From assembly GCA_965206165.1 (NCBI GenBank), contig OZ242194.1, positions 3,586,719-3,650,718 on the forward strand: a DNA stretch of 64,000 bases, read 5' to 3'. The DNA is from Acidimicrobiales bacterium (GTDB lineage Bacteria; Actinomycetota; Acidimicrobiia; Acidimicrobiales; CATQHL01). This document shows positions 8,811 through 48,900 of this stretch, in pieces. The notes beneath the pieces were generated by a model, which worked only from the letters and a program-made list of their open reading frames with translations, searched no databases and had not been told where the DNA came from. Each line of letters starts with the position of its first letter. Positions within the stretch are counted from its first letter, which is position 1. Both the position numbers and the translations under genes were made by a program.

Positions 8811-9860
8811 TCAGCGGTAGTGGTGGGCGACGTTGTCGGGGTAGCTGCGGGCGAAGTAGTTCCAGAGTTGCTCGCCGTACGTGCTCGGCCTGTAACTGCT
8901 TGCCATGTCGCCGACTCCTGCGTCGGTCTCCGCCTTGCGGGCCATGAAGCCGGCGTTGGCGTGGTGGGGACTTGCCACCACCGCCTCGGCGAACCGGCCC
9001 TCGAGCGGCAGCGGGTTGAGTGGCGCCTCCAACGAGGGACCGTGGAAATGGGCCGTGGAGTAGCGCTCCGCCGAGGAGATGACCCGATGCGCGGTGGCAA
9101 CGAGATAGTTGCCGGTCATGGCCTGCAGGCTCTCACCGAGATTGACCACGAACGATCCCGGCACCCGCGGCACGTCGATCCAGTCGCCGGCGGGATTCTG
9201 CACCTGCAGACCCGGGGTCGAGCCGGGCGAGAGGATGGTAAGGAACCCGGTGTCGTGGTGGGCGTTCACCCCGGCCGATCCGGGCGGCGTGGCCGGATAG
9301 TGGATGAACTTGGTGAGCGACATGGGCCGGGAACCGATGAAGCCCTCGAGATGCTCGGCGGACAGTCCGAGGCCCTGCCAGAGCGCAGCCAAGAGCCGGC
9401 CGGCCAGTACGCCGAGCTGTCGGGACCACTCGTTGCTCAGTGCCTCATGCCCGGCCAGGATGTCGTCGGGTAGCCACTGGTTGGGGCCCAGCAGGCGCAG
9501 GTACTCCGGCTCGGTGTCCCGGGCCAACGCGGGCCACTCGGTCCAGCAGTCGATCTGCTCGCGGATGTCGGGACGGTTGTTGGTGTACTCCGAGCCGACC
9601 GGCTCCCAGCCCCGGAAGTGCCGCGACGTGCGCTTGTCAATCAGCCGCTTGTGCTCAACCGGGAGCCTGAAGAAGCGACGCATCATGTCGTAGGTGGCGT
9701 CGTTCAGGGCGTCGGAGACCCCGTGGCTGACGACGAGCACGAAGCCGACCTCATGGCCGATGCGGCACAACTCCTCGGCCAGTCGCGGTGACGGCCGAGC
9801 CCCGTTCGTGAGGGTCGCCACGTCAACGACGGGAATGCTCTCAAACGGCTGAGCAGCCAC
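8811..9860 (-). CDS. 2-oxoglutarate/Fe(II)-dependent oxygenase (isopenicillin N synthase-like family)
   Basis: 349-aa ORF with a GTG start. Motifs: HYPATPP...VNAHHDTGFLTIL (HxD), ATAHRV (distal His/Arg) and an N-terminal non-haem dioxygenase-like region. Confidence 0.8.
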   Translation of the reverse strand: MAAQPFESIPVVDVATLTNGARPSPRLAEELCRIGHEVGFVLVVSHGVSDALNDATYDMMRRFFRLPVEHKRLIDKRTSRHFRGWEPVGSEYTNNRPDIREQIDCWTEWPALARDTEPEYLRLLGPNQWLPDDILAGHEALSNEWSRQLGVLAGRLLAALWQGLGLSAEHLEGFIGSRPMSLTKFIHYPATPPGSAGVNAHHDTGFLTILSPGSTPGLQVQNPAGDWIDVPRVPGSFVVNLGESLQAMTGNYLVATAHRVISSAERYSTAHFHGPSLEAPLNPLPLEGRFAEAVVASPHHANAGFMARKAETDAGVGDMASSYRPSTYGEQLWNYFARSYPDNVAHHYR

Positions 9861-35748: not shown

Positions 35749-35751
35749 CCG
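35710..35751. repeat. 21-bp tandem duplication spanning the hipB start codon
   Basis: CTGCGTCGGTGGTTCCATCCT (35710-35730) and CTGCGTCGGTGGTTCCATCCG (35731-35751), 20/21 identical. Each copy contains a CAT (ATG on the minus strand). Confidence 0.9.
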
Positions 35752-36062
35752 CCCAGCCTACCACTGTGTGGCCGTTCGGCCTCAATCATGTCGCGCGTCC
35801 GTACAGCCCCTCAGCCAGGTCGCGTCCGAGCGGCCACACCCCAGACTCACCTAGTCGTCCGGGACCCAGAATTGCAACGGTCAAATCCGCTGCCTGGTTA
35901 CTCACGTCTGCAACTCCCCAAAGAAGGGGCGATACACGCAGAGATTCGCCGTATGCCCGACGATCACATGATCCCTGAAAGCCACATCAAAATAGATGTT
36001 ATTCGACAGCTGTTGGCGCCAAGCGATCGTGCAACACTCGAGACGACCTGAGCCGACTCACC

Positions 36063-36080
36063 CGCGGCACTCTACCGGGC
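36063..36080. repeat. Right copy of the 18-bp direct repeat CGCGGCACTCTACCGGGC
   Basis: Identical to 33756-33773. It lies 27 bp downstream (in the icl gene's orientation) of the isocitrate lyase stop codon. Confidence 0.8.
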
Positions 36081-36106
36081 GCCCCCGGTCGAGGTCAGGG
36101 TCAGGA

Positions 36107-38494
36107 TCAGATCTCCGAGCGCTCCGGGCGTCCTGGTCGGGCTCGGCTGATCAATTTGCCCAACTCCTCGGGATCGTCGGTCAGCGTCGCCACCGTGGCG
36201 GCGTCAACGTCGGCCACGATGATTTCGCCCACCTCGTCGGTGACCGAGGCGAAGAGCCCCTGGTGGCACATCCGCACCGTCTGGTACCGGTTGTCGTCGG
36301 TGGGCGTGAGGTAGTGGACCGACGTGACCTCGTAGCGCAGGATCAGGAACAGGTGCACCAGCGTCATCAGGCGTTTGCGCCGCATCTCCGGCGCGTGCGT
36401 GTTCTGATCGCGGACCGACAGGATCGACCGGCCCCGGCGGTCCCGCAGCACCGTGAAGATGATGTTGGCCAGCGCCTTGCCTGCCGGTTTCTCCCCGCCG
36501 TCGAGGATGGCGAGTTCGAGGATCTCCGAGCCCGCCTTCCAGGGGCGCAACCGCACCCGCGGGCTGATCCCGAGGTCGTGATGGGCGGCCCAGCGCTCCA
36601 GCCAGCCCTCCAAGAGACGGGTCGGCACCTCGGTCTGCACGAGGTGCTGGTATTGCGTGGACCCCTTGCCCATGGCCCGGGTCGTGGCAGTGCGGCCGGT
36701 CGAGGCCATCAGCGCAGCGTCGAGGCGCGGGCCGCCGACGAGTGTCTGCGGTGTCCGGTAAGGGGAGTCCACCAGGCGCAGGCGGCGCTGCAGCTTCGCC
36801 AGTGCCAGCATCCCCTCCTCGCGGAGGGACGCGGCGAACTGCTCGCCGACCATGCCGTCGATCTGGTGGCCGCCGTAGGTGATGAAATTGAAGACGAATC
36901 CCAGCTTGGCCAGCTCTTCGGGGAAGTCCCGCATCTCGTCGTCACTCATCCCCGTGGTGTCCCAGCTGAACGAGGGCGACAGGTTGTAGGCCAGCATCTT
37001 GTCGGGGTAAACGGCGTGGACCGCCTCGGCGAACTCCCGGGCGTCGGCGAGGTTCGCAGTCTTCGTCTCCATCCACAGCACGTCGCAGAACGGCGCCACT
37101 GCCAGCGACTTCGCCACGGCGTAGGGAATCCCTCCCTGCACCTGGTAGTAGCCCTCAGGAGTGCGCGCCGGCTCGGCGTCCCAGTCGACGTCGAGCCCCA
37201 GTTCCTCGGCGCGTGCCCGAGCGCAGGCGTGACTGGCAGTGCGCGCGAATTCCAGCCACTCGTCAACGCTGACGGGGAAGCTCCCGCCCTCGGCTGTCCG
37301 CCACTCGATCTGCTCGGCCACCGCTTCGGCGTACGTGCAGAGCCCGGCGGCAGCCTGCCAGGCCTCCGCGAGCGCATCACCGGCGCGGTCGGCGACCTCC
37401 CCGGCGCGCCCGTGCGGCGCGGCCAGGTATTCCTCGACTGCCTCGTCAATGGCGCTGCCGGCGCCACATCGATCCAGCCAGGCGTCCGCTTGCGCGTACT
37501 CCCCCGCCGGCAGGGCGTAGAGGAGATGACCGTTGGCGCCCTCGACACCGGCCTCCGTCAGGCGCCGCAAGACCGCCAGGTAGGCCGCCTTGTAGGGCGA
37601 CACGTTGCGTGAGGTGGTGCCGAGCACGAACGGCTGGTCGCGCTCGTCGGCCGCGCTGTCGAGCAGGCTGGCGGCCTCGGCGTCGGTGCGCGCCACGATG
37701 ATGCCGCCGACGCCCATCACATCGAGTTGGAAACGGGCCGCGTTGAGTCGCTTGATCTGCTCGTCACAACCCACGAGCACCTTGCCGCCCTGGTGGCCGC
37801 ACTTCTTGTTGCCCGGGCGCTGGTCCTCGATGTGGTAGCCGGGCACCCCCGCCTCCACGAAGCGCCTGATCAGGTTCCGGACGTGAGGGTCGCCCCCATG
37901 GCCGGTGTCGGCGTCGGCGATGATGGACGGCGAGTAGTCCACCTCGGGCACCTCGGCCCGCTCGGCTGGGGTCATGCGGGAGCGCGCGAAGCTCTGGTTG
38001 CGATCGGCGGTCAGCAGGGCACGCACGATGCCGGCGGCCTCGTCGGGAACCATGCTGAGCGGGTAACCGGCGAGGTCGGGGCCGGGATCCTCGTGCGGCG
38101 AGCCCTTGGCGGAAGTTGCCCAACCCCCCAGGTAGATTCCCTCGATTCCGGCCCGCTTCATGGCGACCGCCTGTCCCGGTGAGTACGGCCCGAACGTGGT
38201 GATGCTGCGGCGGGACTCGAACAGCCGCCGGAGCCGCGCGTGGAACCGATCCGCCGCCACACGGGCGACCGTGTAGTCCTGGCCGATCGCTCCCCGCTGC
38301 TCGACCACCTGGCGCGCCGAGTAGAGCCGCGTCAACCCGGTGAACCGGGGCGCCGCCATCCAGCGGCGCGTGGCCTCGAGGTCGGCGTCGAACCGATCCG
38401 GCGCGCCGCTCTCGCCGGGCAGCGCCAGGGGCTGTGGACGGGCAAGCTCGGCCGATGACGGATCCAGCACTGGACTCGGCGAGAGAACGCTCAT
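36107..38494 (-). CDS. aceA: Isocitrate lyase, long (ICL2/AceA-long) form
   Basis: ORF 36107-38548. I prefer the ATG at 38494, preceded by GGAGGTGTCC. ICL signature [12 protein letters not shown]. The ~795-aa length, with an inserted domain and C-terminal extension, matches the mycobacterial Icl2 type. Confidence 0.9.
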
Positions 38495-38793
38495 GGAAGG
38501 ACACCTCCGCTTCGGGTTTCTTCGATTGTTGCTTCGGGAAACCGGCAACTCATCGATCCGAACTTTATGTAGATATTTTGAACCGATTACCGCATTGACC
38601 GCAGATAATCACCATTGCGGAACATAAGTATTATCGATCTTTCGAGAAACAGCATATCTATCTTCTTCTGGAGACATCGGTCGGAGAGTCTCGCGACATG
38701 GCCAGGGGGGCGTCACCCACGGCGGGTGCGCTCGACGCCGTGGAGCCCGCAGGCACCCGCCGATCAAACCGATACGCCGCCTAACGTGAGGGC

Positions 38794-40980
38794 ATGACAG
38801 AAAACACACACGTAACCATCGGGCGGTTGGAGGTCGCAGCCTCGCTCGAGGAGTTCGTTCGTACTGAGCTTGCCCCTGGTACCGGGATCGATCCCGATCG
38901 ATTCTGGGACGACTTCGGCGCCATCGTGGACGACCTTGACCCGCGCTCCCGAGCCCTCCTGGCAACCCGCGACGATCTACAGGCACAGATCGACGGGTGG
39001 CACGTCGCGCGACGGGGCCAACTTCACGACCGGGCTGCCTACGAGGCGTTCCTGCGCGAGATCGGGTATCTGGCTCCCGAACCGGACGGTGTAGGGGTCG
39101 CGACGGCCAACGTGGACCCGGAGATCGCCGACGTGGCCGGACCTCAGCTCGTGGTGCCCATGGACAACGCCCGATACGCCCTGAACGCCGCGAATGCCCG
39201 CTGGGGCAGCCTGTACGACGCCCTCTACGGCACCGACGTGATCCGCACCAACGGCGGCGGCGGGCGGGACGGGCCGTACAACGCCGTGCGCGGCGACCGG
39301 GTCATCGCCTTCGCGCGTGACCTACTGGACCGCCACGCCCCGCTGACGGCGGGCTCACACCGCGGCGCGGTGGCCTACCGGGTGGCCGATGGGACGCTGG
39401 CGGTCGAACTCGACGACGGGAGCAGCGCCGGACTTGCGGCAGGTGCCGAGTTGGCGGGCTACACCGGCGCGCCCGGCGACCCGGACTCGGTGCTGCTGCG
39501 CCGCAACGGCCTCGGGACCGAGATCCTCATCGACCGCGACCATCCCGTCGGCGCCATCGACCGGGCCGGCGTGGCCGACATCGGTCTCGAGGCGGCGCTC
39601 ACCACGATCATGGACCTCGAGGACTCCATCGCCACGGTGGACGCCGCCGACAAGGTCCTGGCCTACCGCAACTGGCTGGGGCTCATGAAGGGCGACCTGT
39701 CGGCCACGTTCGCCAAGGGCGGCCGCAGCATGACCCGGGAGTTGCGCGCCGACTCGCCGTACCTGGACGCCGGCGGCAACCCCATGACGCTGCGGCGCCG
39801 CAGCGTCATGCTGGTGCGCAACATCGGGCCCCACATCGAGACCGACATCGTGTGCCTCGACGGCGCCCCGATCATCGAGACCCTGCTGGACGCCGCCATC
39901 ACGGCCTGGTGCGCGCTGCACGATCTGGCGGGCACCGGGCCGCATCGCAACAGCGCGACGGGGTCGGTCTACATCGTCAAGCCCAAGATGCACGGCCCCG
40001 ATGAGGTCGCCCTGGCCTCCGAGTTGTTCAGCCGTCTCGAGGACGCGCTCGGCATGGCCCGCAACACGCTGAAGATCGGCATCATGGACGAGGAGCGCCG
40101 CACCTCGCTCAACCTGGCTGCGTGCATCGCCGCGGCGGCCGAGCGGGTCATGTTCATCAACACCGGCTTCCTGGATCGCACCGGCGACGACATCCACACC
40201 TCGATGGAGGCCGGGCCCATGATCCCCAAGGCAGAGATCAAGACCTCCACCTGGCTGACCACCTACGAGGACGTCAACGTGGACGTGGGCCTGGCCACGG
40301 GCCTCGTGGGCCGCGGGCAGATCGGCAAGGGCATGTGGACCCGCCCCGACGACATGGCAGCCATGCTGGCGGAGAAGATCGGCCATCCCCTGTCCGGGGC
40401 CTCCACCGCCTGGGTCCCCTCACCGGTGGCGGCAACACTGCACGCGCTGCACTACCTGGAGACCGACGTGGCGGCCCGCCAGCGCGAGCTGGCCGAGCGC
40501 CCGCCGACGCCGGCGCTCGACATGCTGGAGATCGCCACCCTCGAGCCGGGACGGGAGTTGACACCCGCCGAGATGGCCCGGGAGTTGGAGAACAACGCGC
40601 AGGGCATCCTTGGCTATGTGGCCCGCTGGGTTGGCCAGGGCGTCGGCTGCTCGAAGGTTCCCGACATCAATGACGTGGCGCTCATGGAGGACCGGGCAAC
40701 GCTGCGGATCTCGTCCCAGCACATCGCCAACTGGCTGCACCACGGCCTGCTGAGCGCCGAGCAGGTGCACGCCACCATGGAACGCATGGCCGCCGTGGTG
40801 GACGCCCAGAACGCCGGCGACCCCGACTACCAACCCATGTGTGGTGATCTGGCCCGCAGCATCCCCTACCGGGCCGCTGTGGCGCTTGTGATGGAGGGCC
40901 GCAACCAGCCCAACGGCTACACCGAGTTCATCCTCATCGAGCAGCGCCAGAGGATGAAGGCCGCCCTACGCGCCGGCTGA
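38794..40980 (+). CDS. glcB: Malate synthase G
   Basis: 728-aa ORF. Its size and motifs (ARWGSLYDALYGTD, IGIMDEERRTSLNL, STAWVPSP) are typical of the G isoform. It is divergent from the isocitrate lyase gene. Confidence 0.9.
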   Translation: MTENTHVTIGRLEVAASLEEFVRTELAPGTGIDPDRFWDDFGAIVDDLDPRSRALLATRDDLQAQIDGWHVARRGQLHDRAAYEAFLREIGYLAPEPDGVGVATANVDPEIADVAGPQLVVPMDNARYALNAANARWGSLYDALYGTDVIRTNGGGGRDGPYNAVRGDRVIAFARDLLDRHAPLTAGSHRGAVAYRVADGTLAVELDDGSSAGLAAGAELAGYTGAPGDPDSVLLRRNGLGTEILIDRDHPVGAIDRAGVADIGLEAALTTIMDLEDSIATVDAADKVLAYRNWLGLMKGDLSATFAKGGRSMTRELRADSPYLDAGGNPMTLRRRSVMLVRNIGPHIETDIVCLDGAPIIETLLDAAITAWCALHDLAGTGPHRNSATGSVYIVKPKMHGPDEVALASELFSRLEDALGMARNTLKIGIMDEERRTSLNLAACIAAAAERVMFINTGFLDRTGDDIHTSMEAGPMIPKAEIKTSTWLTTYEDVNVDVGLATGLVGRGQIGKGMWTRPDDMAAMLAEKIGHPLSGASTAWVPSPVAATLHALHYLETDVAARQRELAERPPTPALDMLEIATLEPGRELTPAEMARELENNAQGILGYVARWVGQGVGCSKVPDINDVALMEDRATLRISSQHIANWLHHGLLSAEQVHATMERMAAVVDAQNAGDPDYQPMCGDLARSIPYRAAVALVMEGRNQPNGYTEFILIEQRQRMKAALRAG

Positions 40981-41153
40981 GGGCGGCGGGCGCCCGGTAC
41001 ACGCAGCCGACCGCCATCGACCTGTGCCCTCCCGATCCGTCGGCGCGTCCTCTCCGCGATGCAGGTCTCAGAGAAGCACGACATTGCAACCCTGAAACTC
41101 ACGGCAGTTGGTGCCAATGATTCACGGTAGACCTCTCCCAGAAATCACGGTAG

Positions 41154-42140
41154 GACCCGCTGCCGCTCGCCTCGCAGTCCCTGACGGGTCGGCTGCACCG
41201 CATGGAGATCCATCCCTTCTCCCAGGGCGAGATCGACTCCCGGCGCGAGAACCTGATCCAGCTGCTCTTCGTTGACCACGCGGCGGTCCTGACGCCAGAA
41301 CCGTCCGCCACCACACGCGAGCAGTACATAACCCGCATTGCCCGCGGCGGGTTTCCGCTGGCGCTGACGCGGAGCGAAGCGGCGCGGGATCGCTGGTTCG
41401 ACGATTACGTCGCCCTGTGCCTTGAACGCGACCTACTGGACCTAGGCCGCGTGCGCCGGCCCGGCGCGCTCTCTCCCCTGCTGTCACGGCTCGCGGCACA
41501 GACCGCACAGATCCTCAACGCGTCGCGGGCGGGCGCCGAGGCGGGGCTTCCCACAAGCACCGCCTCGGACTACATCGACCTCTTCGAGAGCAACTTCCTG
41601 CTGCGACTGGTGCCGGCTTGGGGGAAGACGCTGCGCGCCGCCACCGCGTCGCGCCCGAAGATCCACCTGGTGGACTCGGGCCTCGCAGCCCGGCTGCTGC
41701 GCCTCACGCCCGAAAGGCTCGGCGGGCTCGACCCCACGTCCTTGCAGCAGTTCGGGCACCTGATCGAGACGTTCGTCGTCGGCGAAGTGCTGAAGCAGGC
41801 GTCATGGATGGAGTACCGCCCGCACGTCGGGCACTGGCGCACGCACGACGGAGCAGAGGTTGATCTCATCATCGAGGACGGGCGATCCGGCTCGGTCGTC
41901 GGCATCGAGGTGAAGGCCGGCTCCCGGGTCCACCCACGCGACCGGCGCGGCCTGCGGATGCTTCGCGACAGACTTGGCGAACGATTCATCGTCGGGGTGG
42001 TCCTCCACACGGGCGCGCACTGCATCCGCTACGCCGACGACGAGCGCATAATCGCCCTCCCCATCGATCGCCTCTGGACCGAGGTCGCCACCGGCCCAAC
42101 GGCTACACCGAGTTCATCCTCACCGAGCAGCAGCGGATGA
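41154..42140 (+). pseudogene. DUF4143-type AAA ATPase gene, 5'-truncated (AAA domain missing)
   Basis: The reading frame after the TAG at 41151 gives DPLPLASQSLTGRLHRMEIHPFSQGEI..., which corresponds to the middle of this family (ESLAGR...L.PLS..E), followed by the DUF4143 region. There is no P-loop region upstream. The 3' end reads out of frame into a glcB-derived segment. Confidence 0.55.
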
Positions 42141-42163
42141 AGGCCACCGTGCGCGCTGACTGA
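42094..42163 (+). repeat. Orphan diverged copy of the last 23 codons of glcB
   Basis: GCCCAACGGCTACACCGAGTTCATCCTCA is identical to 40908-40936. The copy continues as a diverged version encoding PNGYTEFILTEQQRMKATVRAD*, versus PNGYTEFILIEQRQRMKAALRAG* in glcB. Confidence 0.85.
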
Positions 42164-42192
42164 GGCCTGGCCGGCGAAGTCGGGGCCACGGC

Positions 42193-45100
42193 TTAGTCGC
42201 CCGCAAGGGCCGCGCGGACTTCGGCGATTGCCGTGTGCAGGTCGTCGACCTCCACCTCGTGGACGCTGTTGGGGCCGAGGAAGACGAAGACGCAGCGCGA
42301 CACCCTGCGGCCGGTGGACTCGCTCACCATGAGGGCGTAGGCGGCGATCTGCAGCCGGTAGCCGGGCTTCTGACGCAGATCGGGACGCTCGTCGGAGGCG
42401 TGGGTCTTGTAGTCGACCACAACGAAGGAGCCGTCGGACGCTTCGTAGAGCAGGTCGATGAACCCCTCCAGGAAGCGGCCCTCGACCTCGGCGCCGGCGT
42501 ACAGCTCACGCCAGTGGCGCTGCCGGGCCGCCTCGCGGAGGGTCGACGAGCTCAGGGCGTTGCGTGCCCTCGCGGCCACGTCGTCGGCGAGATGATCGAT
42601 GCCCTCCGCGGCGGCGTACCGGCTGGCCGACGGCGCGAGCGCCTCGCCGGGTGCATCGAAGCTCACCGTCTGGAGCACGGCGTGAACCGCCCGGCCGAGT
42701 GCCGTGCCGTACCGGCCCCTGCGCCACACCGGCGCATCCTCGTCGATCACGTCCTTGTCGAGGCCGGGATCGGGCGCACCTCGCTCCGCCGGGGGCTCGT
42801 GGTCCTCGACACCGGCGCTCTCGACCGCTCGTCCTCGGAGCTCGGCGGGCGCTATGGCTCCGTTTCCGGTCGCCGTCGCCACCCCGCTCGCAGACACCAG
42901 AGGGCTGCGCGCGGCACAGTCCCACAAAGCGGCATGCTCGCGTTCCCACTCATCGCGGGGCGGAACGGCAGCCGGCGCCCCCGTGGTCGTCGCCGGCACC
43001 GGGTCCACACCGAGGTGCCTGGGGCGAAAATCCCGGTTTCCGGGCACCACAGGTGCATCGGCCGGACCTGCACCGTACGGCGGGTCGCCCGGCTGCAACG
43101 TCTCCAGCGGGCGACCCGCAGTCGAGCCGGCGAGATCCAAAGCCCACACGAAGCTCGTCGGGGATGAAGCCGGCGCCTCCTCCCCCGGCTTATCGGCATC
43201 GGTGGGTACGTCAAGCGCCACGGTTAGCGGATGGGGAGCCACCGCGACCTCTGTGGGCTGCGGATCCACGACTTCAGCGACGGTGTGCGCCAGCAGTTCG
43301 GCAAGGGTCATCTTCGGCAGGATCTCCGCGACGGCCAGGTTCTGCCACGACGGAGGCTTGCGCCCGCTTCGGTACAGCGAGACCGCCAGGTAGTCCTCGG
43401 CCCGGGTGCAGGCCACGTACAGCTTGCGGATGTCCTCGTGGAACTCGTGCAGCTGTTCGGAATCCGCCACGCCGTCGCTGCCGAACGACCTGACGCGTCC
43501 TCCGAGCTTGCAGAATGCCCCCCCACTGCGCGGGAAAGCCAGCTCGGAGGACCGGTTGCCCCGAGTTGGCGTGGTCGTGCCGGAGAATCCCGCCACGACC
43601 ACGAACGGGAACTCGAGCCCCTTGGCGGCGTGGACGGTCATGATCCGCACGGCGTCGTCATCGGTCTCGGGGACGAGCGCCTCGACCACTCGCGCCCCCT
43701 CGCCGCGCTGCATGTCGACCCAGCGGAGGTATGCCCGCAGCGTGCCACCGGTGGAATCCGAGAAGGCCCGCGCCTGATCGGCGGCGCGCCGGAGGCGGCG
43801 CCAGGTGTCCCGGTGACGATCCTCCGCGAAAGCCAGCTCCATCAGCCGGCGCTCCCGCAGAACCCGGTCCACGATCTCCCCCGGGCTGCGCCAGAGCCGC
43901 TGATCGTGAAGCTCTTGCATCCACTCCAGCGCCTTGGCGACCGGGTGGTCGGGTTGCGGGCTCGGGCTCAGGTAGTCCCAGGGCCGGTGGTTGCCGCCGC
44001 AGAGTTGCCGGTAGTTGTACAGGTCGTCGTCCCCAAAGCCGAAGGCGGCCGAGCGCAGTGCTGTCACCACCGCCAGATGGTCCGACGGGTCGTCGGTGGC
44101 ACGCAGCACGGCCAGCAGGTCGGTCTCTGCTCGGGTTGCGTAGACGAGGCTGGAGGACTCCACTCGGTACGGCACGCCGGCCGCCTCGAACGCGCCAATG
44201 AGCGGGCCCAGTACGGTGCGCGCGGGGATCAGGACGCACACGTCGCTCAGCCGCAGGGGCCGCGTTTCCGAGCCGTCGCGCACGGGCCAGCTCTCACCGA
44301 CGGCTCGCCGGATCAGGGCGGCGACCTGGGCGAATTCGATGCGGCGGAGCCGCTCGGCGGGAATGCGGCGCGACTCGCCCTCTCCGAGGCTGTCGGTCCC
44401 CAGGAGGAGCACCGGGGCTCCGACATGGCCGTCGAGTGGGCGGCGGGCGGCTCGAAGGGGAACGTAGTCAGGTTGGGATCCGTCGGCGGGCCGGACGAGG
44501 CGACCGAAGACAGCGTTGACCCAGTCCACGATCGCCGGTGACGAGCGCCAGTTCCTGCTGAGTGTCTCGCGGGCCGTCGGGCCGGCCCACTTCGCCACTT
44601 GCAGATACAGCCCGATGTCAGCCCGCCGGAAGCGGTACAGCGACTGCTTCGGGTCGCCCACGAAGAAGAGCGCTCCGTGGCCACCCTCGAGGTCCTGCCA
44701 GGACGGTGGGCCGACGCCCTCGCCGGGGTCGTCGCAAGCGATCAGCAGGGCCAGCTCCACCTGGATGGGGTCGGTGTCCTGGAACTCGTCGATGAGCAGC
44801 CGCTGGTAGCGCTGGTGCAACGCCCGGCGCACGGCGGCGCCGCGGTCGGGATGACGCAGCAGGTTCCGGGCCTGCACCAGCAGGTCGTGGAAGGCGAGCC
44901 GTCCCTGGCGGCGGCGCCGGTCGGCCTCGGCCAGAACGAAGCCTGCCAGGCGGGCGAGCAGCCGCGCCGAACACGCCCGCCCCGCGGCATCGAGACGTAC
45001 TCCGGCCTCGTCTCGTAACTCCTTCAGGCGCTCACGCACGCCCTCCTTGTCGAAGGCGGGGTGCCAGTTGTCCTTGCGGCTTCGCGGCACTCGCCCCCCG

Positions 45101-45954
45101 GCCACCTCCTCGAGCAACACCACGGCCTCCTGTTCGCCCGCTGCCTCGAGGCGATCGGCCAACCGGTCGAGATGTAAGAGGACTTCGCAGAGGGCGTCCG
45201 CATCGTCGGGAACCGCCTCGGAGAGCCGGTCGAGCGGGACTCGGCACCAGCGGCTCTCACCGGCGAGTTCGCGCATCGGCGCGATCAGGTCGGCGAACTC
45301 CAGCGGTGGCACCTCGGGCAGCTGGTCGAGCGCGGGGATACGCTCGGCGGCCAGATCCCAGTTGTCGGCCATGCGTCGGGCCACGGTCCGCAGGTTCGCC
45401 ACCCGCATCCCCAGGGCGTCTCCCAGCACCAGCGCCCGCTCCATCTCCGGTTCGGCCAGCACCTCCTCCACGAACCGTTCCCAGCCCTCGGCGAACTCCA
45501 TGTCGGCGCCAATCTCGTCGAGCATCTCCAGCCGGGGCGGTAGGCCGGCCTCGGTGGTGTGTTCGCGCAGGATCCGCTGCGCGAACGAGTGCAGCGTGCA
45601 GACCGCCGCGCCGTCCAGATCGTCCAGGCCACGGCGCAGGATCTCTACGTCCCCCTCGGAGGCTCGGCAGCTCGCCGTGACGAGATCCCGCCGCAGACGC
45701 TCGCGCAATTCGGCGGCGGCTTTCTCCGTGAAGGTGATGGCGGCGATGTTGGACAGCGCCACGCCGCTGCGCACCAGCGCCATAATCCGCGCCACCAGCG
45801 CCGTCGTCTTGCCGGTTCCCGCGCCGGCCTCCAGGAAGAGGTCGCGGGTCAGATCCTCGGCCGCGGCATGGCGCGCTCGGTCGTCGCTGTCGCTGCCGTC
45901 ACCGACGCGCTTGCCAGGACCGGGGTCGTCGCCTGCATGCACCGGCCGGCTCAC
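42193..45954 (-). CDS. UvrD-type helicase / RecB-type nuclease subunit (AddA/AdnB-like)
   Basis: 1253-aa ORF with Walker A EAGAGTGKTTAL, LLIDEFQDTD, helicase motifs and the C-terminal nuclease motif FIDLLYE...VVVDYKTH. GTGA overlap with the upstream subunit gene. Confidence 0.85.
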   Translation of the reverse strand: MSRPVHAGDDPGPGKRVGDGSDSDDRARHAAAEDLTRDLFLEAGAGTGKTTALVARIMALVRSGVALSNIAAITFTEKAAAELRERLRRDLVTASCRASEGDVEILRRGLDDLDGAAVCTLHSFAQRILREHTTEAGLPPRLEMLDEIGADMEFAEGWERFVEEVLAEPEMERALVLGDALGMRVANLRTVARRMADNWDLAAERIPALDQLPEVPPLEFADLIAPMRELAGESRWCRVPLDRLSEAVPDDADALCEVLLHLDRLADRLEAAGEQEAVVLLEEVAGGRVPRSRKDNWHPAFDKEGVRERLKELRDEAGVRLDAAGRACSARLLARLAGFVLAEADRRRRQGRLAFHDLLVQARNLLRHPDRGAAVRRALHQRYQRLLIDEFQDTDPIQVELALLIACDDPGEGVGPPSWQDLEGGHGALFFVGDPKQSLYRFRRADIGLYLQVAKWAGPTARETLSRNWRSSPAIVDWVNAVFGRLVRPADGSQPDYVPLRAARRPLDGHVGAPVLLLGTDSLGEGESRRIPAERLRRIEFAQVAALIRRAVGESWPVRDGSETRPLRLSDVCVLIPARTVLGPLIGAFEAAGVPYRVESSSLVYATRAETDLLAVLRATDDPSDHLAVVTALRSAAFGFGDDDLYNYRQLCGGNHRPWDYLSPSPQPDHPVAKALEWMQELHDQRLWRSPGEIVDRVLRERRLMELAFAEDRHRDTWRRLRRAADQARAFSDSTGGTLRAYLRWVDMQRGEGARVVEALVPETDDDAVRIMTVHAAKGLEFPFVVVAGFSGTTTPTRGNRSSELAFPRSGGAFCKLGGRVRSFGSDGVADSEQLHEFHEDIRKLYVACTRAEDYLAVSLYRSGRKPPSWQNLAVAEILPKMTLAELLAHTVAEVVDPQPTEVAVAPHPLTVALDVPTDADKPGEEAPASSPTSFVWALDLAGSTAGRPLETLQPGDPPYGAGPADAPVVPGNRDFRPRHLGVDPVPATTTGAPAAVPPRDEWEREHAALWDCAARSPLVSASGVATATGNGAIAPAELRGRAVESAGVEDHEPPAERGAPDPGLDKDVIDEDAPVWRRGRYGTALGRAVHAVLQTVSFDAPGEALAPSASRYAAAEGIDHLADDVAARARNALSSSTLREAARQRHWRELYAGAEVEGRFLEGFIDLLYEASDGSFVVVDYKTHASDERPDLRQKPGYRLQIAAYALMVSESTGRRVSRCVFVFLGPNSVHEVEVDDLHTAIAEVRAALAGD

Positions 45955-48900
45955 GTGCGATCCTCCGATTCGTGCTCCACCTGATCGTCAGAAGGTGGCC
46001 CGCCGGCCAGGCGTCGGTTCTCCTCGATGGGCAATAGCTCCCTCGCCCCCACCCGGAGCCAACCGATCATCTCGGGGCTCTGGGCCTTGCGGAGGGCTTG
46101 TGCCGCAAGCTCGCCTGCCCGGTGCCGATCGGCGTCGCAGTAGTCGCAGTGCGACGGGTGGCCCCGCGGGCGCGGGTAGGCGGGGAAGACACCGCCGGCG
46201 ATCCCGTCGCAGATACTCGCCAGCGTCCACTGCGTCTCGGCTTCGACCGATTCGTCCAGCGGCAGCGGCAACCAGCGGAAGTCTTCGCTTGCCGTCACGA
46301 ACCAGTACCCGGCGATCACATCGGCCGCCGCGCCGGCCATCAGCCGCGCCGCCTGGGCGTACAGCGGGAGTTGCAGCCGCGGCAGGGCCTCACGCTTCGG
46401 ACCACCCTTGCGGCCCGCCCCCGCATAGATCGCCCACGGTGCCTCGCCGAGCCGCTGGTAGAGGTTGCTGCGGCCCGTCTTGTAGTCGATCACCACGAGG
46501 ACGCCCCTCTCGGTCATGTCGATGCGATCGACCGCGCCGCGCAGGCGGATCGTGCGGCCGTCGCCCAACGGGATCTCCACCGGAGGCAGGGATTCCTCCT
46601 CGCGCCGCCGGGGCGGCATGCCGAAGCCCTTCTCGCTCGCCCACGGCACGCTGCGCCCGGTGCGGCGCCATTCCTCCTCGACGTCGAGGAATGCCAGCAA
46701 CTCGCGGCGGATCCTGCTGCGCTCGGGCTCCCAGAAGATCCGCTGACCGACGCGCCCCTGCCCCTCGCGCTCGGCGAACGCCTCCTCGGCGATCTCGGCG
46801 AAGCGGCGGCGCTCGTCGATCCCCCAGCCGTGCAGCGGATCCGGCGCACCAACCGCCAGGATCTGGCTTAAGAACCGGTCCAGAATCGTGTGGACGAGAT
46901 CACCGCGCTCCAGCGGCGAGATCCGCAATTCCCGTTCTGGTTGATCCACGGGCTCGACGCCGAGCATGTAGCGCATGAAGTAGCCATGAGGGCAGGTCGC
47001 CCACGCCTCCAGCTGCGTGGCCGAGACGGCCGGCCCGCCGCCCGCCGGGTCGGCGATGTCGCACCCTGCGAGGTTCCCGTCGAAGCGCGTGAAAGCGGTG
47101 CTTCGCCGCTCGGTCAGCATCGTCACTGCAGGCTCGAGCGGCTCGCCGGAGGCGGCGAGCCGATGCTCGCCCAGCGAGCCCCCGTTGTCGCGGTGATCGA
47201 GCAGCAGGCGAAGGTCGTACTCCTGGAACGTCGGCGGGAACGCGCACGCCCGGAGGGCGGCGGTGGGCGAGGGCACGTCGCTGAAGATGCCGTCGGGCAG
47301 CTTCGCCAGGTCCCCGGCACCGAGGAGCAAGTCCGACCCGTCGGCGCCGGCGGCCTGTAGCCCGTGTGCCGACGCCAGCAGCCACCGTGACGGCAGCCGG
47401 TCCGCGGTGCGGCGCAGGTCGCCGCGCGGGTAGACGAGCGTGCGCTCGCCCGACGCCCCAGCCAGCGCAGCCAGGAACCTGCGGCGATCGTCGGCCAGGC
47501 GAGCCGGAGGCGAGAGCAACGCATCGGGAACAGCGGCCCGCTCGGTCTCACTGAGCAGGGTTTCCTCGACCGCTTGGCCGGGGAACACGCCCTCTGCCAT
47601 CCCGAGCACCCAGACGCACTCCAGGTCCACGCCGAGCGCCGAGCCGACCGGTCCGGTCAGCAGACCGTGACCCGTGCGTCCCTGCCGACCCCTGCTAGTC
47701 GCGAGTTCGGCCTCCAAGGCGCGGCGGAATCGCGGCAGATCGGGCCGGGGGTCGACGCGATCCAGGCCGCCGAGACGCTCGAGGGAGGCCTCGACGCGCT
47801 CTGCGGCAGCGCGCTCGTGCGGCGGCCAATTGCCCTGGCGCCACTCGGCGCCGCCCACGAGGTCCCGGACCGATCTCTCAGCCCACCCGGCGAGCCTCCG
47901 CCACGACCTCAGCGCGCTCGCCGCCTCGCCACGAGCCAGAACGTCGGTCATGAACAGGCGCAGACTGTCGGCGGTGGCGAGGTCGCGCTCAATGTGGGCG
48001 CGCCGCCAGTCGCTGTCCTCGCCGAGCCGGTCCATCTCGGACCGCCGGTTGGCGCAGTAGTCCCCGAGCCGCCGACTCCACTCCCCGGCTCCGTCGATCA
48101 CCCCGGCGCGGCGGCTGATCCGCTCCCAGGCCGCCACAGGCACCGGGCGCCAACGCCCGTCCCCCCCGACCTCCAGCATCGAGCGGACCGGTGCCCCCGC
48201 CAACCAGGCCATGACGTCTTGGCGCCTGTAGCGGCGTGCGGGCAGGCCGAGCAACTCCAGCAGGAACCGGCCGAGCACGCTCTCGGTCAGCGGACGCGTC
48301 GACGGACCGCTGAAGGGCAACCCCGCCGCCTGCAACTGGTCCGCCAGCAGGCGGGCATAGGGATCGTTGCGCCCGTACAGCACCGCCATCCGCTCCAGCG
48401 GCACCCCGCGGCGCATCGCCTCGACCACCCGCCGCAGCGCGGTGCGCACCTCCTCGTCGGCATCGGGCACGGCGACGATGCGGGTCGGCGCGGGCGCCGG
48501 GACAGCGGCAGGCTGCCAGGCTGCGGGACCGGCAAGGCGGCGCACGCCGGCCGCCACCGGGGCGTCGGCATCGGTGTCGTCGCAGCTGCCGGCCAGGACT
48601 GTGAACCCACCGGCGGCCGAGGTCAACGCAACCAGCAGGTCGAGCGCCGCCGAGCTCAACCGCTGCGGCAGGTACAGCACAACCCGGCCCAACCCGGCGA
48701 CGTCGACCGCCCCGGGTGAGTCACCCTGCGCCTCCGCCGAGCCGACGGCCGGACCAATCGCCCCGCGCGACAGTCCCTCGTGCGAGTCCGTCGGGTCCGC
48801 CGACTCCGGGGCCACAGATTGCTTCCCAACACCAAGCAGCCGCCGGGCCTCGGTCAGCAGATCGCGTTCGTCGTGGAAGCCGCCGGCCGCCAGCCGCCGC

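Follow-up and report, generated by a model that had tools for sequence, protein, structure and literature searches.

A duplicated malate synthase gene end around a truncated DUF4143 gene in an Acidimicrobiales bacterium, probably a chimeric joint of two forms of the glcB-adnB locus

Results

A chimeric interval between glcB and adnB

In a 64,000-nucleotide stretch of DNA from an Acidimicrobiales bacterium (the window), the 3' end of glcB, encoding malate synthase G, occurs twice and encloses a 5'-truncated DUF4143 gene. The left part of this interval is collinear with a DUF4143-bearing form of the locus and the right part with an "empty" form, and both forms were found in related bacteria. Judging from this structure, the locus is probably the product of an illegitimate joint between two coexisting locus forms, of the kind known from homology-facilitated illegitimate recombination (HFIR), followed by pseudogenisation of the DUF4143 gene. 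The features discussed below are as follows.

38794..40980, + strand: glcB, malate synthase G, intact, 728 aa (Pfam MS_N, MSG_insertion, MS_TIM-barrel and MS_C)
40908..40980, + strand: repeat copy 1, the functional glcB 3' end, closing with QPNGYTEFILIEQRQRMKAALRAG and a stop codon (repeat search, alignment)
40981..41153, + strand: 5' region of the DUF4143 cassette, 93.5-94.8% identical to L081, L082 and L089
41153..41158, + strand: joint of a net 359-bp deletion (MAFFT alignment, BLAST boundaries)
41154..42095, + strand: 5'-truncated DUF4143 pseudogene (AAA_14/DUF4143, COG1373, PADLOC PDC-S01; Pfam, relatives)
42094..42095, + strand: putative illegitimate joint, 2-nt "GC" (window and L081 compared with L082)
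42094..42163, + strand: orphan glcB 3' end, collinear with the glcB end of the empty form
42164..42192, no strand: 29-bp spacer of the empty form between the glcB and adnB stops, aligning with L085/L086
42193..45954, - strand: convergent gene for an AdnB/AddA-like UvrD helicase and PD-(D/E)XK nuclease (Pfam, NCBIfam), here called adnB

The duplicated glcB end

A direct-repeat search paired 40897-40954 with 42083-42140 (86% identity) and 40943-40982 with 42126-42165 (80%), and found no second repeat family of similar length and identity in the 38-46 kb region. Pairwise alignment of the two copies gives 29 identical bases (40908-40936 and 42094-42122), a 3-bp indel and a diverged tail leading to a TGA codon. 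Read in the glcB frame, the orphan ends in PNGYTEFILTEQQRMKATVRAD and a stop, and glcB proper in PNGYTEFILIEQRQRMKAALRAG and a stop. An earlier note on this DNA had described the last ~70 bp of glcB (40908-40980) as recurring at 42094-42163, with 29 identical bases, a diverged tail and a stop, and with a 5'-truncated DUF4143 gene bracketed by the copies; each of these observations was borne out, and the duplicated gene end is confirmed. The orphan spans only the final 23 malate synthase codons, and carries a 3-bp deletion relative to the orphan of L081.

The full-length glcB scores 1101 bits against NCBIfam PRK02999 (NF002825; cutoff 565) and is 97% identical to P0001; an exact protein look-up returned no record for it. 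In a scan of genome contigs with glcB, the relatives among the matches listed were at most 67% identical, and these keep the divergent icl/glcB pair without the downstream synteny.

Two forms of the interval in related loci

The window was compared with eleven related loci of uncultured Acidimicrobiia-like bacteria, ten of them at the glcB-adnB site. The adnB-like gene forms the right-hand anchor of the locus, and its synteny is kept in L081, L083, L085-L089 and L105. In the empty form, present in four loci (L085, L086, L104 and L105), the stop codons of glcB and adnB are 17-29 bp apart. In three others (L087, L088 and L089) the interval holds a TCACGG array and a full-length AAA_14/DUF4143 gene but no orphan; this cassette adjoins glcB in L088 and L089 and lies in the same interval in L087.

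Both arrangements can be recognized in the window. Positions 36054-41155 run on with glcB and the TCACGG region of L081 and L082. Repeat copy 1 is continuous with the DUF4143-bearing form, its "RQR" tail being found also in L081, L082, L088 and L089, and it runs into DNA that is missing from the empty form. Positions 42083-48157 form one HSP (93.6%) with L085 that takes in the glcB end, the spacer and the adnB gene of that locus, and the spacer of the window has the same length as that of L085/L086 (8188-8216). The orphan thus occupies the place of the glcB end in the relatives that have no DUF4143 gene.

Depending on the strain, the interval measures 0-5 kb and is empty, carries VapBC, or carries DUF4143, either alone, with Mrr, or with both Mrr and a histidine kinase. 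It is free of integrases, transposases and inverted repeats in the window and in all ten related loci of the site, and none of these ten has a larger island there.

Sliding-window identities and per-gene identity matrices show that the whole region is a mosaic. Between L085 and L086, identity is 99.7-99.9% in icl and adnB and 83% in the 5' half of glcB; the adnB of the window is ~93% identical to that of every relative, and the flanks of the window are 97-100% identical to L081. Such patterns show that these lineages are heavily recombining. Between lineages the cassette is 98.5-98.7% identical, with flanking sequence at 89-97%. The DUF4143 alleles at the site are 84-99% nucleotide-identical, and the glcB genes of the host lineages are 84-97% identical to that of the window.

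The joints in the window, L081 and L082

The native 3' end of the DUF4143 gene reads GTCGCCACCGGCGAGTGA in L082 and GTCGCCGCCGGCGAGTGA in L089, a one-base variant (GCCGCC). Since the likeness of ~11 bp just upstream of 42094 corresponds to this native DUF4143 end, the true joint lies at 42094-42095. After …ACCGGC the window and L081 change over to glcB sequence. The dinucleotide GC is common to the DUF4143 3' end (…ACCGGC followed by GAGTGA) and to glcB (…CAGC followed by CCAACGG), and sits inside a 9/12 patch of chance similarity. As a result the DUF4143 frame is without its last two codons and its own stop, and reads through the orphan in another frame to 42140.

The joint of the window and L081 lies at about -70 of glcB. 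L082 has a separate joint at about -196, counted from the glcB stop; the two joint sequences are GTCGCCACCGGCCCAACGGCTACACC and GATGGCTTCGGGATGGCCGCTGTCG. The order in L082 is the DUF4143 stop, ~50 bp, a decayed adnB-3'-like stretch of ~43 bp, and a 196-bp glcB orphan. The adnB-like stretch matches the adnB end of L083 at 33/43 positions (77%, counted by hand; BLAST E 5e-4) and, short and decayed as it is, is a probable adnB 3' remnant. This structure would be expected if a fragment of the DUF4143-bearing form had ended just inside adnB. Downstream of the orphan, L082 has vapCB, whereas L081 and the window have adnB directly. The L082 and L081 orphans are identical at 61/72 positions (85%), the least alike pair among the glcB ends compared. 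This fits two separate origins as well as a single old event with neutral decay since then.

The DUF4143 pseudogene and its repeat array

The DUF4143 domain of the window copy is complete (Pfam PF13635, 1-160/160, E 1.3e-37), and the gene is 98.5-98.7% nucleotide-identical to intact genes in L081 and L082. The AAA_14 P-loop domain, present in the copies of L081, L082 and L089, was not found by Pfam in the window copy, owing to a net deletion of 359 bp; the intact version in these three loci is longer by just this length (MAFFT). BLAST places the boundaries at window 41155 (L081 12362) and window 41158 (L081 12724). Among five closely related copies, only that of the window has the deletion. 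Set against L081, L082 and L089, the window has lost through it the fourth TCACGG unit, a GGGAGG ribosome-binding-like site, the start codon and ~110 codons, which include Walker A (GPRSVGKST) and Walker B (VFIDEYQ), both motifs as read from the L081 sequence; this maps the truncation that had been noticed earlier. With the whole P-loop half and the start codon gone, the gene is a pseudogene. Its lineage-specific substitutions (2 synonymous, 4 non-synonymous) are similar to those of the intact copies, and their small number, too low to demonstrate relaxed selection, shows no more than that the deletion is recent.

Three TCACGG units survive in the window, starting at 41099, 41122 and 41145 with exact 23-bp phasing, as compared to four or five in the intact alleles. 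In L081, L082, L087, L088 and L089 the last unit lies at -15 of the start codon, again with exact 23-bp spacing, and in the array of the unlinked locus L090 it lies at -23. Scans of 40800-42300 with promoter and terminator consensus sequences gave no match.

The full-length L081 protein matches PADLOC PDC-S01 (PDLC04790) with E 9.2e-145. PDC families are single-gene phage-defence candidates that are defined by genomic association. Like PDC-S01/COG1373, which they match at E 9e-145, the full-length relatives combine AAA_14 and DUF4143, and their neighbours in the variable interval are Mrr-type restriction genes and VapBC; the window copy differs by the loss of the P-loop half and the start codon. 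The DUF4143 cassette may be regarded as a candidate phage-defence gene.

Discussion

Proposed origin of the locus

We propose that a segment of one locus form recombined into a cell with the other form. Form A would consist of glcB, four to five 23-bp-phased TCACGG repeats, a full-length AAA_14/DUF4143 gene, sometimes Mrr, and adnB; form B, the empty form, would have only 17-29 bp between the glcB and adnB stops. The incoming segment may have been of form A and the genome of form B, or vice versa. One end of the incoming segment would have recombined by ordinary homology, in glcB or in adnB, and the other end, which had no homologous partner, would have been joined illegitimately at a 2-nt microhomology. 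Such a joint would fuse the DUF4143 gene, two codons short of its stop, to a position about -70 of the form-B glcB, leaving a 70-bp orphan glcB end that still precedes the 29-bp spacer and adnB. The 359-bp deletion would then have taken the last repeat unit, the start codon and the ATPase P-loop half, giving the recent pseudogene.

HFIR has been described in primary reports (de Vries & Wackernagel 2002, Prudhomme et al. 2002, Meier & Wackernagel 2003, as cited in PMC5361080). Orphaned 3' gene ends in effector-immunity arrays of the Rhs, CDI and T6SS types have been proposed to be among its products, and for Rhs and T6SS effector loci it has been suggested as their cause (PMC5361080). The present locus resembles HFIR products in that one end is anchored by homology and the other is a microhomology joint, here the GC overlap within the 9/12 patch. 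DNA was gained, and a 3' piece of the conserved upstream gene was pushed downstream as an orphan without a recombinase gene. Both parental arrangements are present in the population and collinear with the window, form A in L087-L089 and form B in L085, L086 and L105, and the repeat search found neither a target-site duplication nor terminal or bounding inverted repeats of the interval. It differs in that the target is the end of a housekeeping gene instead of a polymorphic toxin locus, that there is a single displacement layer instead of an array, and that the process is deduced for uncultured Acidimicrobiia-like bacteria from their assembled metagenomes. In principle, the two glcB repeats could have recombined with each other and so produced the empty forms secondarily, which would weaken the argument that both parents existed beforehand.

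Alternative explanations

A sub-variant of the same explanation assumes one primary joint only, of the L082 type (adnB' to glcB' at -196), with the window/L081 joint being secondary, through a later microhomology deletion of ~210 bp in an L082-like structure. The chance 9/12 likeness of GTCGCCACCGGC and GCCGCAGCCAGC would favour such a deletion, and the cassettes are nearly identical in all three lineages; the low similarity of the L082 and L081 orphans and the different downstream genes (vapCB versus adnB) argue against it. We consider this variant unlikely, while giving it some weight.

The cassette, i.e. the repeats with the ATPase/PD-(D/E)XK-like gene, might also be mobile itself, inserting in a homing-like manner and leaving orphan gene ends behind. 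The protein has a PD-(D/E)XK-superfamily domain (PMC3424549), the cassette and its repeat array occur also at the unlinked L090, where a 38-bp orphan DUF4143 3' fragment lies ~840 bp downstream, two different glcB orphans accompany the cassette, and its identity across lineages exceeds that of the flanks. This last point can be explained equally by ordinary homologous exchange between strains. Furthermore, terminal inverted repeats and target-site duplications were not found in the repeat search, the junctions are irregular, with one inside the cassette's own coding sequence, and the alleles at the site have diverged about as much as glcB, as expected for a long-standing resident. Mobility of this kind is therefore a poor candidate. 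The more specific proposal that the PDC-S01 cassette with its TCACGG array is autonomous and is copied into conserved gene ends by its own nuclease/ATPase likewise appears very improbable; if true, the orphan ends in the window and L082 (glcB) and in L090 (DUF4143) would be footprints of the cassette.

The earlier note had proposed an element that integrated into the 3' end of glcB, supplied a replacement for it and later lost most of its length. In this model a site-specific element would have carried the glcB 3' end in its attP, and its integrase would be among the lost parts. Integrative elements of this type do restore the 3' end of the targeted gene from attP. As with elements that target the 3' ends of tRNA, tmRNA or protein genes, a direct repeat of a gene end flanks accessory, non-core DNA and the gene is left intact; the interval is strain-variable and includes defence and toxin-antitoxin genes. 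The position of the orphan, where the empty form has its glcB end, and the existence of empty sites (L085, L086, L104 and L105) uphold this part of the proposal. The integrase and the fixed crossover did not hold up: the window and the ten related loci have no gene for a tyrosine or serine recombinase in this interval, the full-length island with integrase that the note suggested looking for in relatives was absent from all ten, and the joints at about -70 (window, L081) and about -196 (L082, with its probable adnB remnant) do not share one attL/attR coordinate. Nor can most of an element have been deleted, as the full version in L081, L082 and L089 is merely 359 bp longer. On the right, the boundary falls within the DUF4143 coding sequence, two codons ahead of the stop, and the cassette occurs without an orphan in L087, L088 and L089. 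Finally, 13 metagenome contigs contain a 28-mer of the repeat core without a mismatch, 12 of them between clearly different flanks, which shows the 29-bp "core" to be conserved glcB coding sequence; the scan with this 28-bp core gave no further orphan joints. The integrative-element model is thus largely refuted and highly unlikely.

On the other flank, the window has a hipBA cassette that is missing in all eight relatives compared there. The earlier reading of insertion scars on both flanks agrees with the hipBA side, but not with an integrative element on the glcB side.

A local tandem duplication, a second malate synthase fragment or an assembly artefact, although slippage or misassembly can yield short direct repeats, is hardly credible: the joint recurs in the independent assembly L081 and so is no artefact; tandem duplication is ruled out by the orphan being followed by the empty-form spacer and not by the sequence after the full-length glcB; sequence divergence between the two copies is 14-17%, against 98.5% identity to relatives for the DNA that they enclose; among the other ORFs of 200 aa or more in the 64-kb window, none is comparable to the 728-aa glcB; and BLAST with the last 400 bp of glcB matched only glcB and the orphan.

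Biological meaning

The glcB-adnB interval, with strain-specific cargo between conserved core genes, resembles the known hotspots of defence and variable genes, but is very small. Its turnover appears to proceed through recombination between chromosomal forms and not through integration of mobile elements. The scar as such is an ordinary one, and the present understanding of these processes is unchanged. For annotation, the lesson is that a duplicated gene end around accessory DNA is by itself no proof of an integrase. With both parental forms and two joints identified, the joint of form A and form B is a fairly clean natural example, from an uncultured Acidimicrobiia-like lineage, of how recombination between chromosomal forms may add or remove a candidate defence gene and orphan a gene end. 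It also illustrates the rapid turnover of a PDC-S01 candidate between two housekeeping genes, where it is intact, truncated, deleted or absent depending on the strain.

Second copy of the glcB 3' end

The last ~73 bp of glcB occur a second time in the window, 1.19 kb downstream of the gene. This duplication, claimed in the earlier note, was borne out both by a repeat search (40897-40954 / 42083-42140, 86%; 40943-40982 / 42126-42165, 80%) and by pairwise alignment of the two copies, which share 29 bases without a mismatch (40908-36 = 42094-122) before a 3-bp indel and a divergent stretch that ends in TGA. Translated in the glcB frame, the detached copy (the orphan) reads PNGYTEFILTEQQRMKATVRAD and a stop, which lies 29 bp from the stop of the convergent AdnB/AddA-like gene (adnB). 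The gene between the copies is truncated, as the earlier note also held.

Features of the glcB-adnB interval in the window
38794-40980, + strand: glcB, malate synthase G, complete, 728 aa (Pfam; NCBIfam PRK02999, 1101 bits)
40981-41153: non-coding DNA between the copies, 173 bp
between the glcB copies: open frame with complete DUF4143 domain, AAA_14 absent (Pfam)
42094-42163: orphan glcB 3' end
42193-45954, - strand: AdnB/AddA-like helicase-nuclease gene, convergent (Pfam, NCBIfam)

Forms of the locus in relatives

When species-representative genomes were scanned with glcB, the matches listed were all from Acidimicrobiia MAGs at 67% identity or less, and among these downstream synteny was absent. 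A large protein database yielded glcB proteins at 80-97% identity, and from the contigs of these and of DUF4143 homologues 11 related loci of uncultured Acidimicrobiia-like bacteria (L081 and following) were compared, 10 of them at the glcB-adnB site; the eleventh, L090, has the DUF4143 cassette at an unlinked position. Several arrangements occur between the glcB and adnB stops.

Forms of the interval in related loci
L085, L086, L104, L105: empty form, 17-29 bp between stops
L089: glcB, TCACGG array, full-length AAA_14/DUF4143 gene ending at its own stop, then adnB after 38 bp
L088: as L089, plus an Mrr-type restriction gene
L087: histidine kinase, DUF4143, Mrr
L083, L084: glcB, complete TCACGG array, no DUF4143 ORF, then vapCB
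L081: glcB, TCACGG array, intact DUF4143 (439 aa), orphan glcB end, adnB; window-type joint
L082: DUF4143 ending at its own stop, then ~50 bp, a decayed sequence of ~43 bp similar to the adnB 3' end, a glcB orphan of 196 bp with a frameshift, and vapCB

The short spacer 3' of the DUF4143 stop contains 'TCAGAAC…' in L089 (8279-8316) and L082 (13667-13720). By eye, it looks like the 3' terminus of the Mrr gene located after DUF4143 in L087 and L088, which suggests that Mrr was deleted from the L089 and L082 forms.

Origin of the joint

Alignment with the relatives indicates which glcB end belongs where. The stretch of orphan, 29-bp spacer and adnB (42083-48157) matches glcB end, 29-bp spacer and adnB of L085 (8104-14187) in a single HSP of 93.6%, so that the orphan occupies the exact place of the empty form's glcB end. 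The end attached to glcB runs on into the TCACGG region, likewise in L081, L082 and L089. The native DUF4143 gene ends in …GTCGCCACCGGCGAGTGA in L082 and in the one-base variant …GTCGCCGCCGGCGAGTGA in L089; in the window and L081, …ACCGGC is followed by the glcB sequence CCAACGGCTACACC…. The overlap at this joint is GC (42094-95), lying within a chance 9/12 match that accounts for the repeat's apparent extension to 42083.

The simplest account is an illegitimate joint between two forms of one locus. A fragment of one form would recombine into a genome with the other form, using homology at one end, within glcB or adnB, while the end without homology would join at a microhomology. This is the outcome of homology-facilitated illegitimate recombination, which has been proposed as the origin of orphaned 3' ends at the effector loci of Rhs and T6SS systems (PMC5361080). 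In L082 a probable adnB 3' remnant abuts glcB at -196, and this locus therefore fits a fragment of the cassette-bearing form ending ~45 bp inside adnB.

Such exchange is plausible because the population is highly mosaic. L085 and L086, from the same sample, match at 99.7-99.9% in icl and adnBA but at only 83% in the 5' half of glcB (window equivalent 38794-39880) and 95% in its 3' half, which shows that malate synthase G is itself strongly mosaic between alleles. Across 42.4-45.3 kb the window's adnB has ~93% identity to each of the relatives, L081 among them, while the DNA on either side of it is 97-100% identical to L081; 42400-45300 is a ~3-kb recombined patch whose start is at the orphan or close to it. 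Between lineages whose flanks are 89-97% identical, identity in the cassette reaches 98.5-98.7%.

The window/L081 joint may instead have arisen later, through a microhomology deletion in a structure of the L082 type. The window/L081-type and L082-type orphans, however, differ more than any other two glcB ends compared (61/72), and we therefore lean towards separate events, although long neutral decay would fit too. Self-mobilisation of the PDC-S01 (DUF4143) cassette is improbable, but some features would fit it: the DUF4143 domain belongs to the PD-(D/E)XK family (PMC3424549), identity is raised between lineages, and L090 has the cassette at an unlinked locus. There, a 38-bp match (87%) to the DUF4143 3' end (9141-9178), ~840 bp downstream of the intact gene and past two small ORFs, may represent a further gene end displaced as an orphan. 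Terminal repeats and target-site duplications of the cassette were looked for, but none were found.

Integrase-mediated insertion at the glcB 3' end, as the earlier note proposed, is disfavoured: no integrase or transposase was found between glcB and adnB in the window or the 10 related loci at the site, the joint coordinates differ between loci, one boundary lies inside coding sequence, and DUF4143 forms without an orphan exist. The 29 identical bases encode a conserved QPNGYTEFIL motif, and a 28-mer of them recurs base-for-base in glcB of 13 metagenome contigs, 12 with clearly different flanks, which rules them out as a recombination core. Tandem duplication is ruled out by the empty-form spacer that follows the orphan, and assembly error by L081, an independent assembly with the same joint.

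The TCACGG array

Four or five units of (A/T)TCACGG(T/C)AG with an exact 23-bp period lie directly upstream of every DUF4143/PDC-S01 allele examined (window 41096-41153; L081 12306-12386; L087 10620-10726; L090 6886-6990), with three units surviving in the window; the alleles are 84-99% identical, and that of L090 is unlinked to glcB. Counted from the start codon, the last unit stands at -15 in L081, L082, L087, L088 and L089, and at -23 in L090. In L087 a kinase gene separates cassette and glcB. Phasing, fixed distance, the L087 separation and presence in L090 together assign the region to the DUF4143 cassette rather than to glcB. The array could serve as an operator or a protein-binding site. 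In L083 the array is kept and the DUF4143 ORF is gone.

The hipBA insertion

On the other flank of icl-glcB, the hipBA cassette had likewise been read as an insertion, and the relatives agree. It spans ~2.3 kb (33756-36080; hipA at 34062-35426, - strand, with an HTH-encoding stretch, probably hipB, upstream), and none of the eight relatives compared at that flank has it; there, an amidohydrolase gene adjoins icl. An exact 18-bp direct repeat, CGCGGCACTCTACCGGGC, brackets it (33756-33773 and 36063-36080); every locus empty of hipBA has this as a single, nearly invariant intergenic motif. Inside the insertion, a ~21-bp unit, CTGCGTCGGTGGTTCCATCC, is tandemly duplicated (35709-35750) on the higher-coordinate side of the probable hipB, away from hipA.

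A recently truncated candidate defence gene

Lacking a stop of its own, the window's DUF4143 frame continues across the orphan, in a frame other than that of glcB, as far as 42140. A net 359 bp are missing relative to L081, L082 and L089 (alignment; BLAST boundaries): the fourth TCACGG unit, a GGGAGG site, the start codon and ~110 codons, Walker A and Walker B among them (identified in the L081 sequence). The copy is a pseudogene. That most of an element was later deleted does not hold, as the intact versions exceed the window by this net 359 bp. Among five closely related copies (window, L081, L082, L089; L088 at 89%) the deletion is found in the window only, and it is recent, because the residual 936 bp are still open, free of stops and frameshifts, with six private substitutions, a number similar to that of intact copies.

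The full-length L081 protein has the COG1373 architecture (AAA_14 + DUF4143) and matches PADLOC PDC-S01 (E 9.2e-145). In relatives the cassette lies beside genes for an Mrr-type type IV restriction enzyme (PDC-S02, mREase_IV matches) and VapBC. With these and the candidate defence gene PDC-S01 as occupants, the interval behaves as a hotspot, of very small size, for defence and toxin-antitoxin genes. The feature is best explained as a recombination scar accompanied by a candidate defence gene that was truncated recently; it does not represent a new kind of element, and is of modest interest as a documented natural example.
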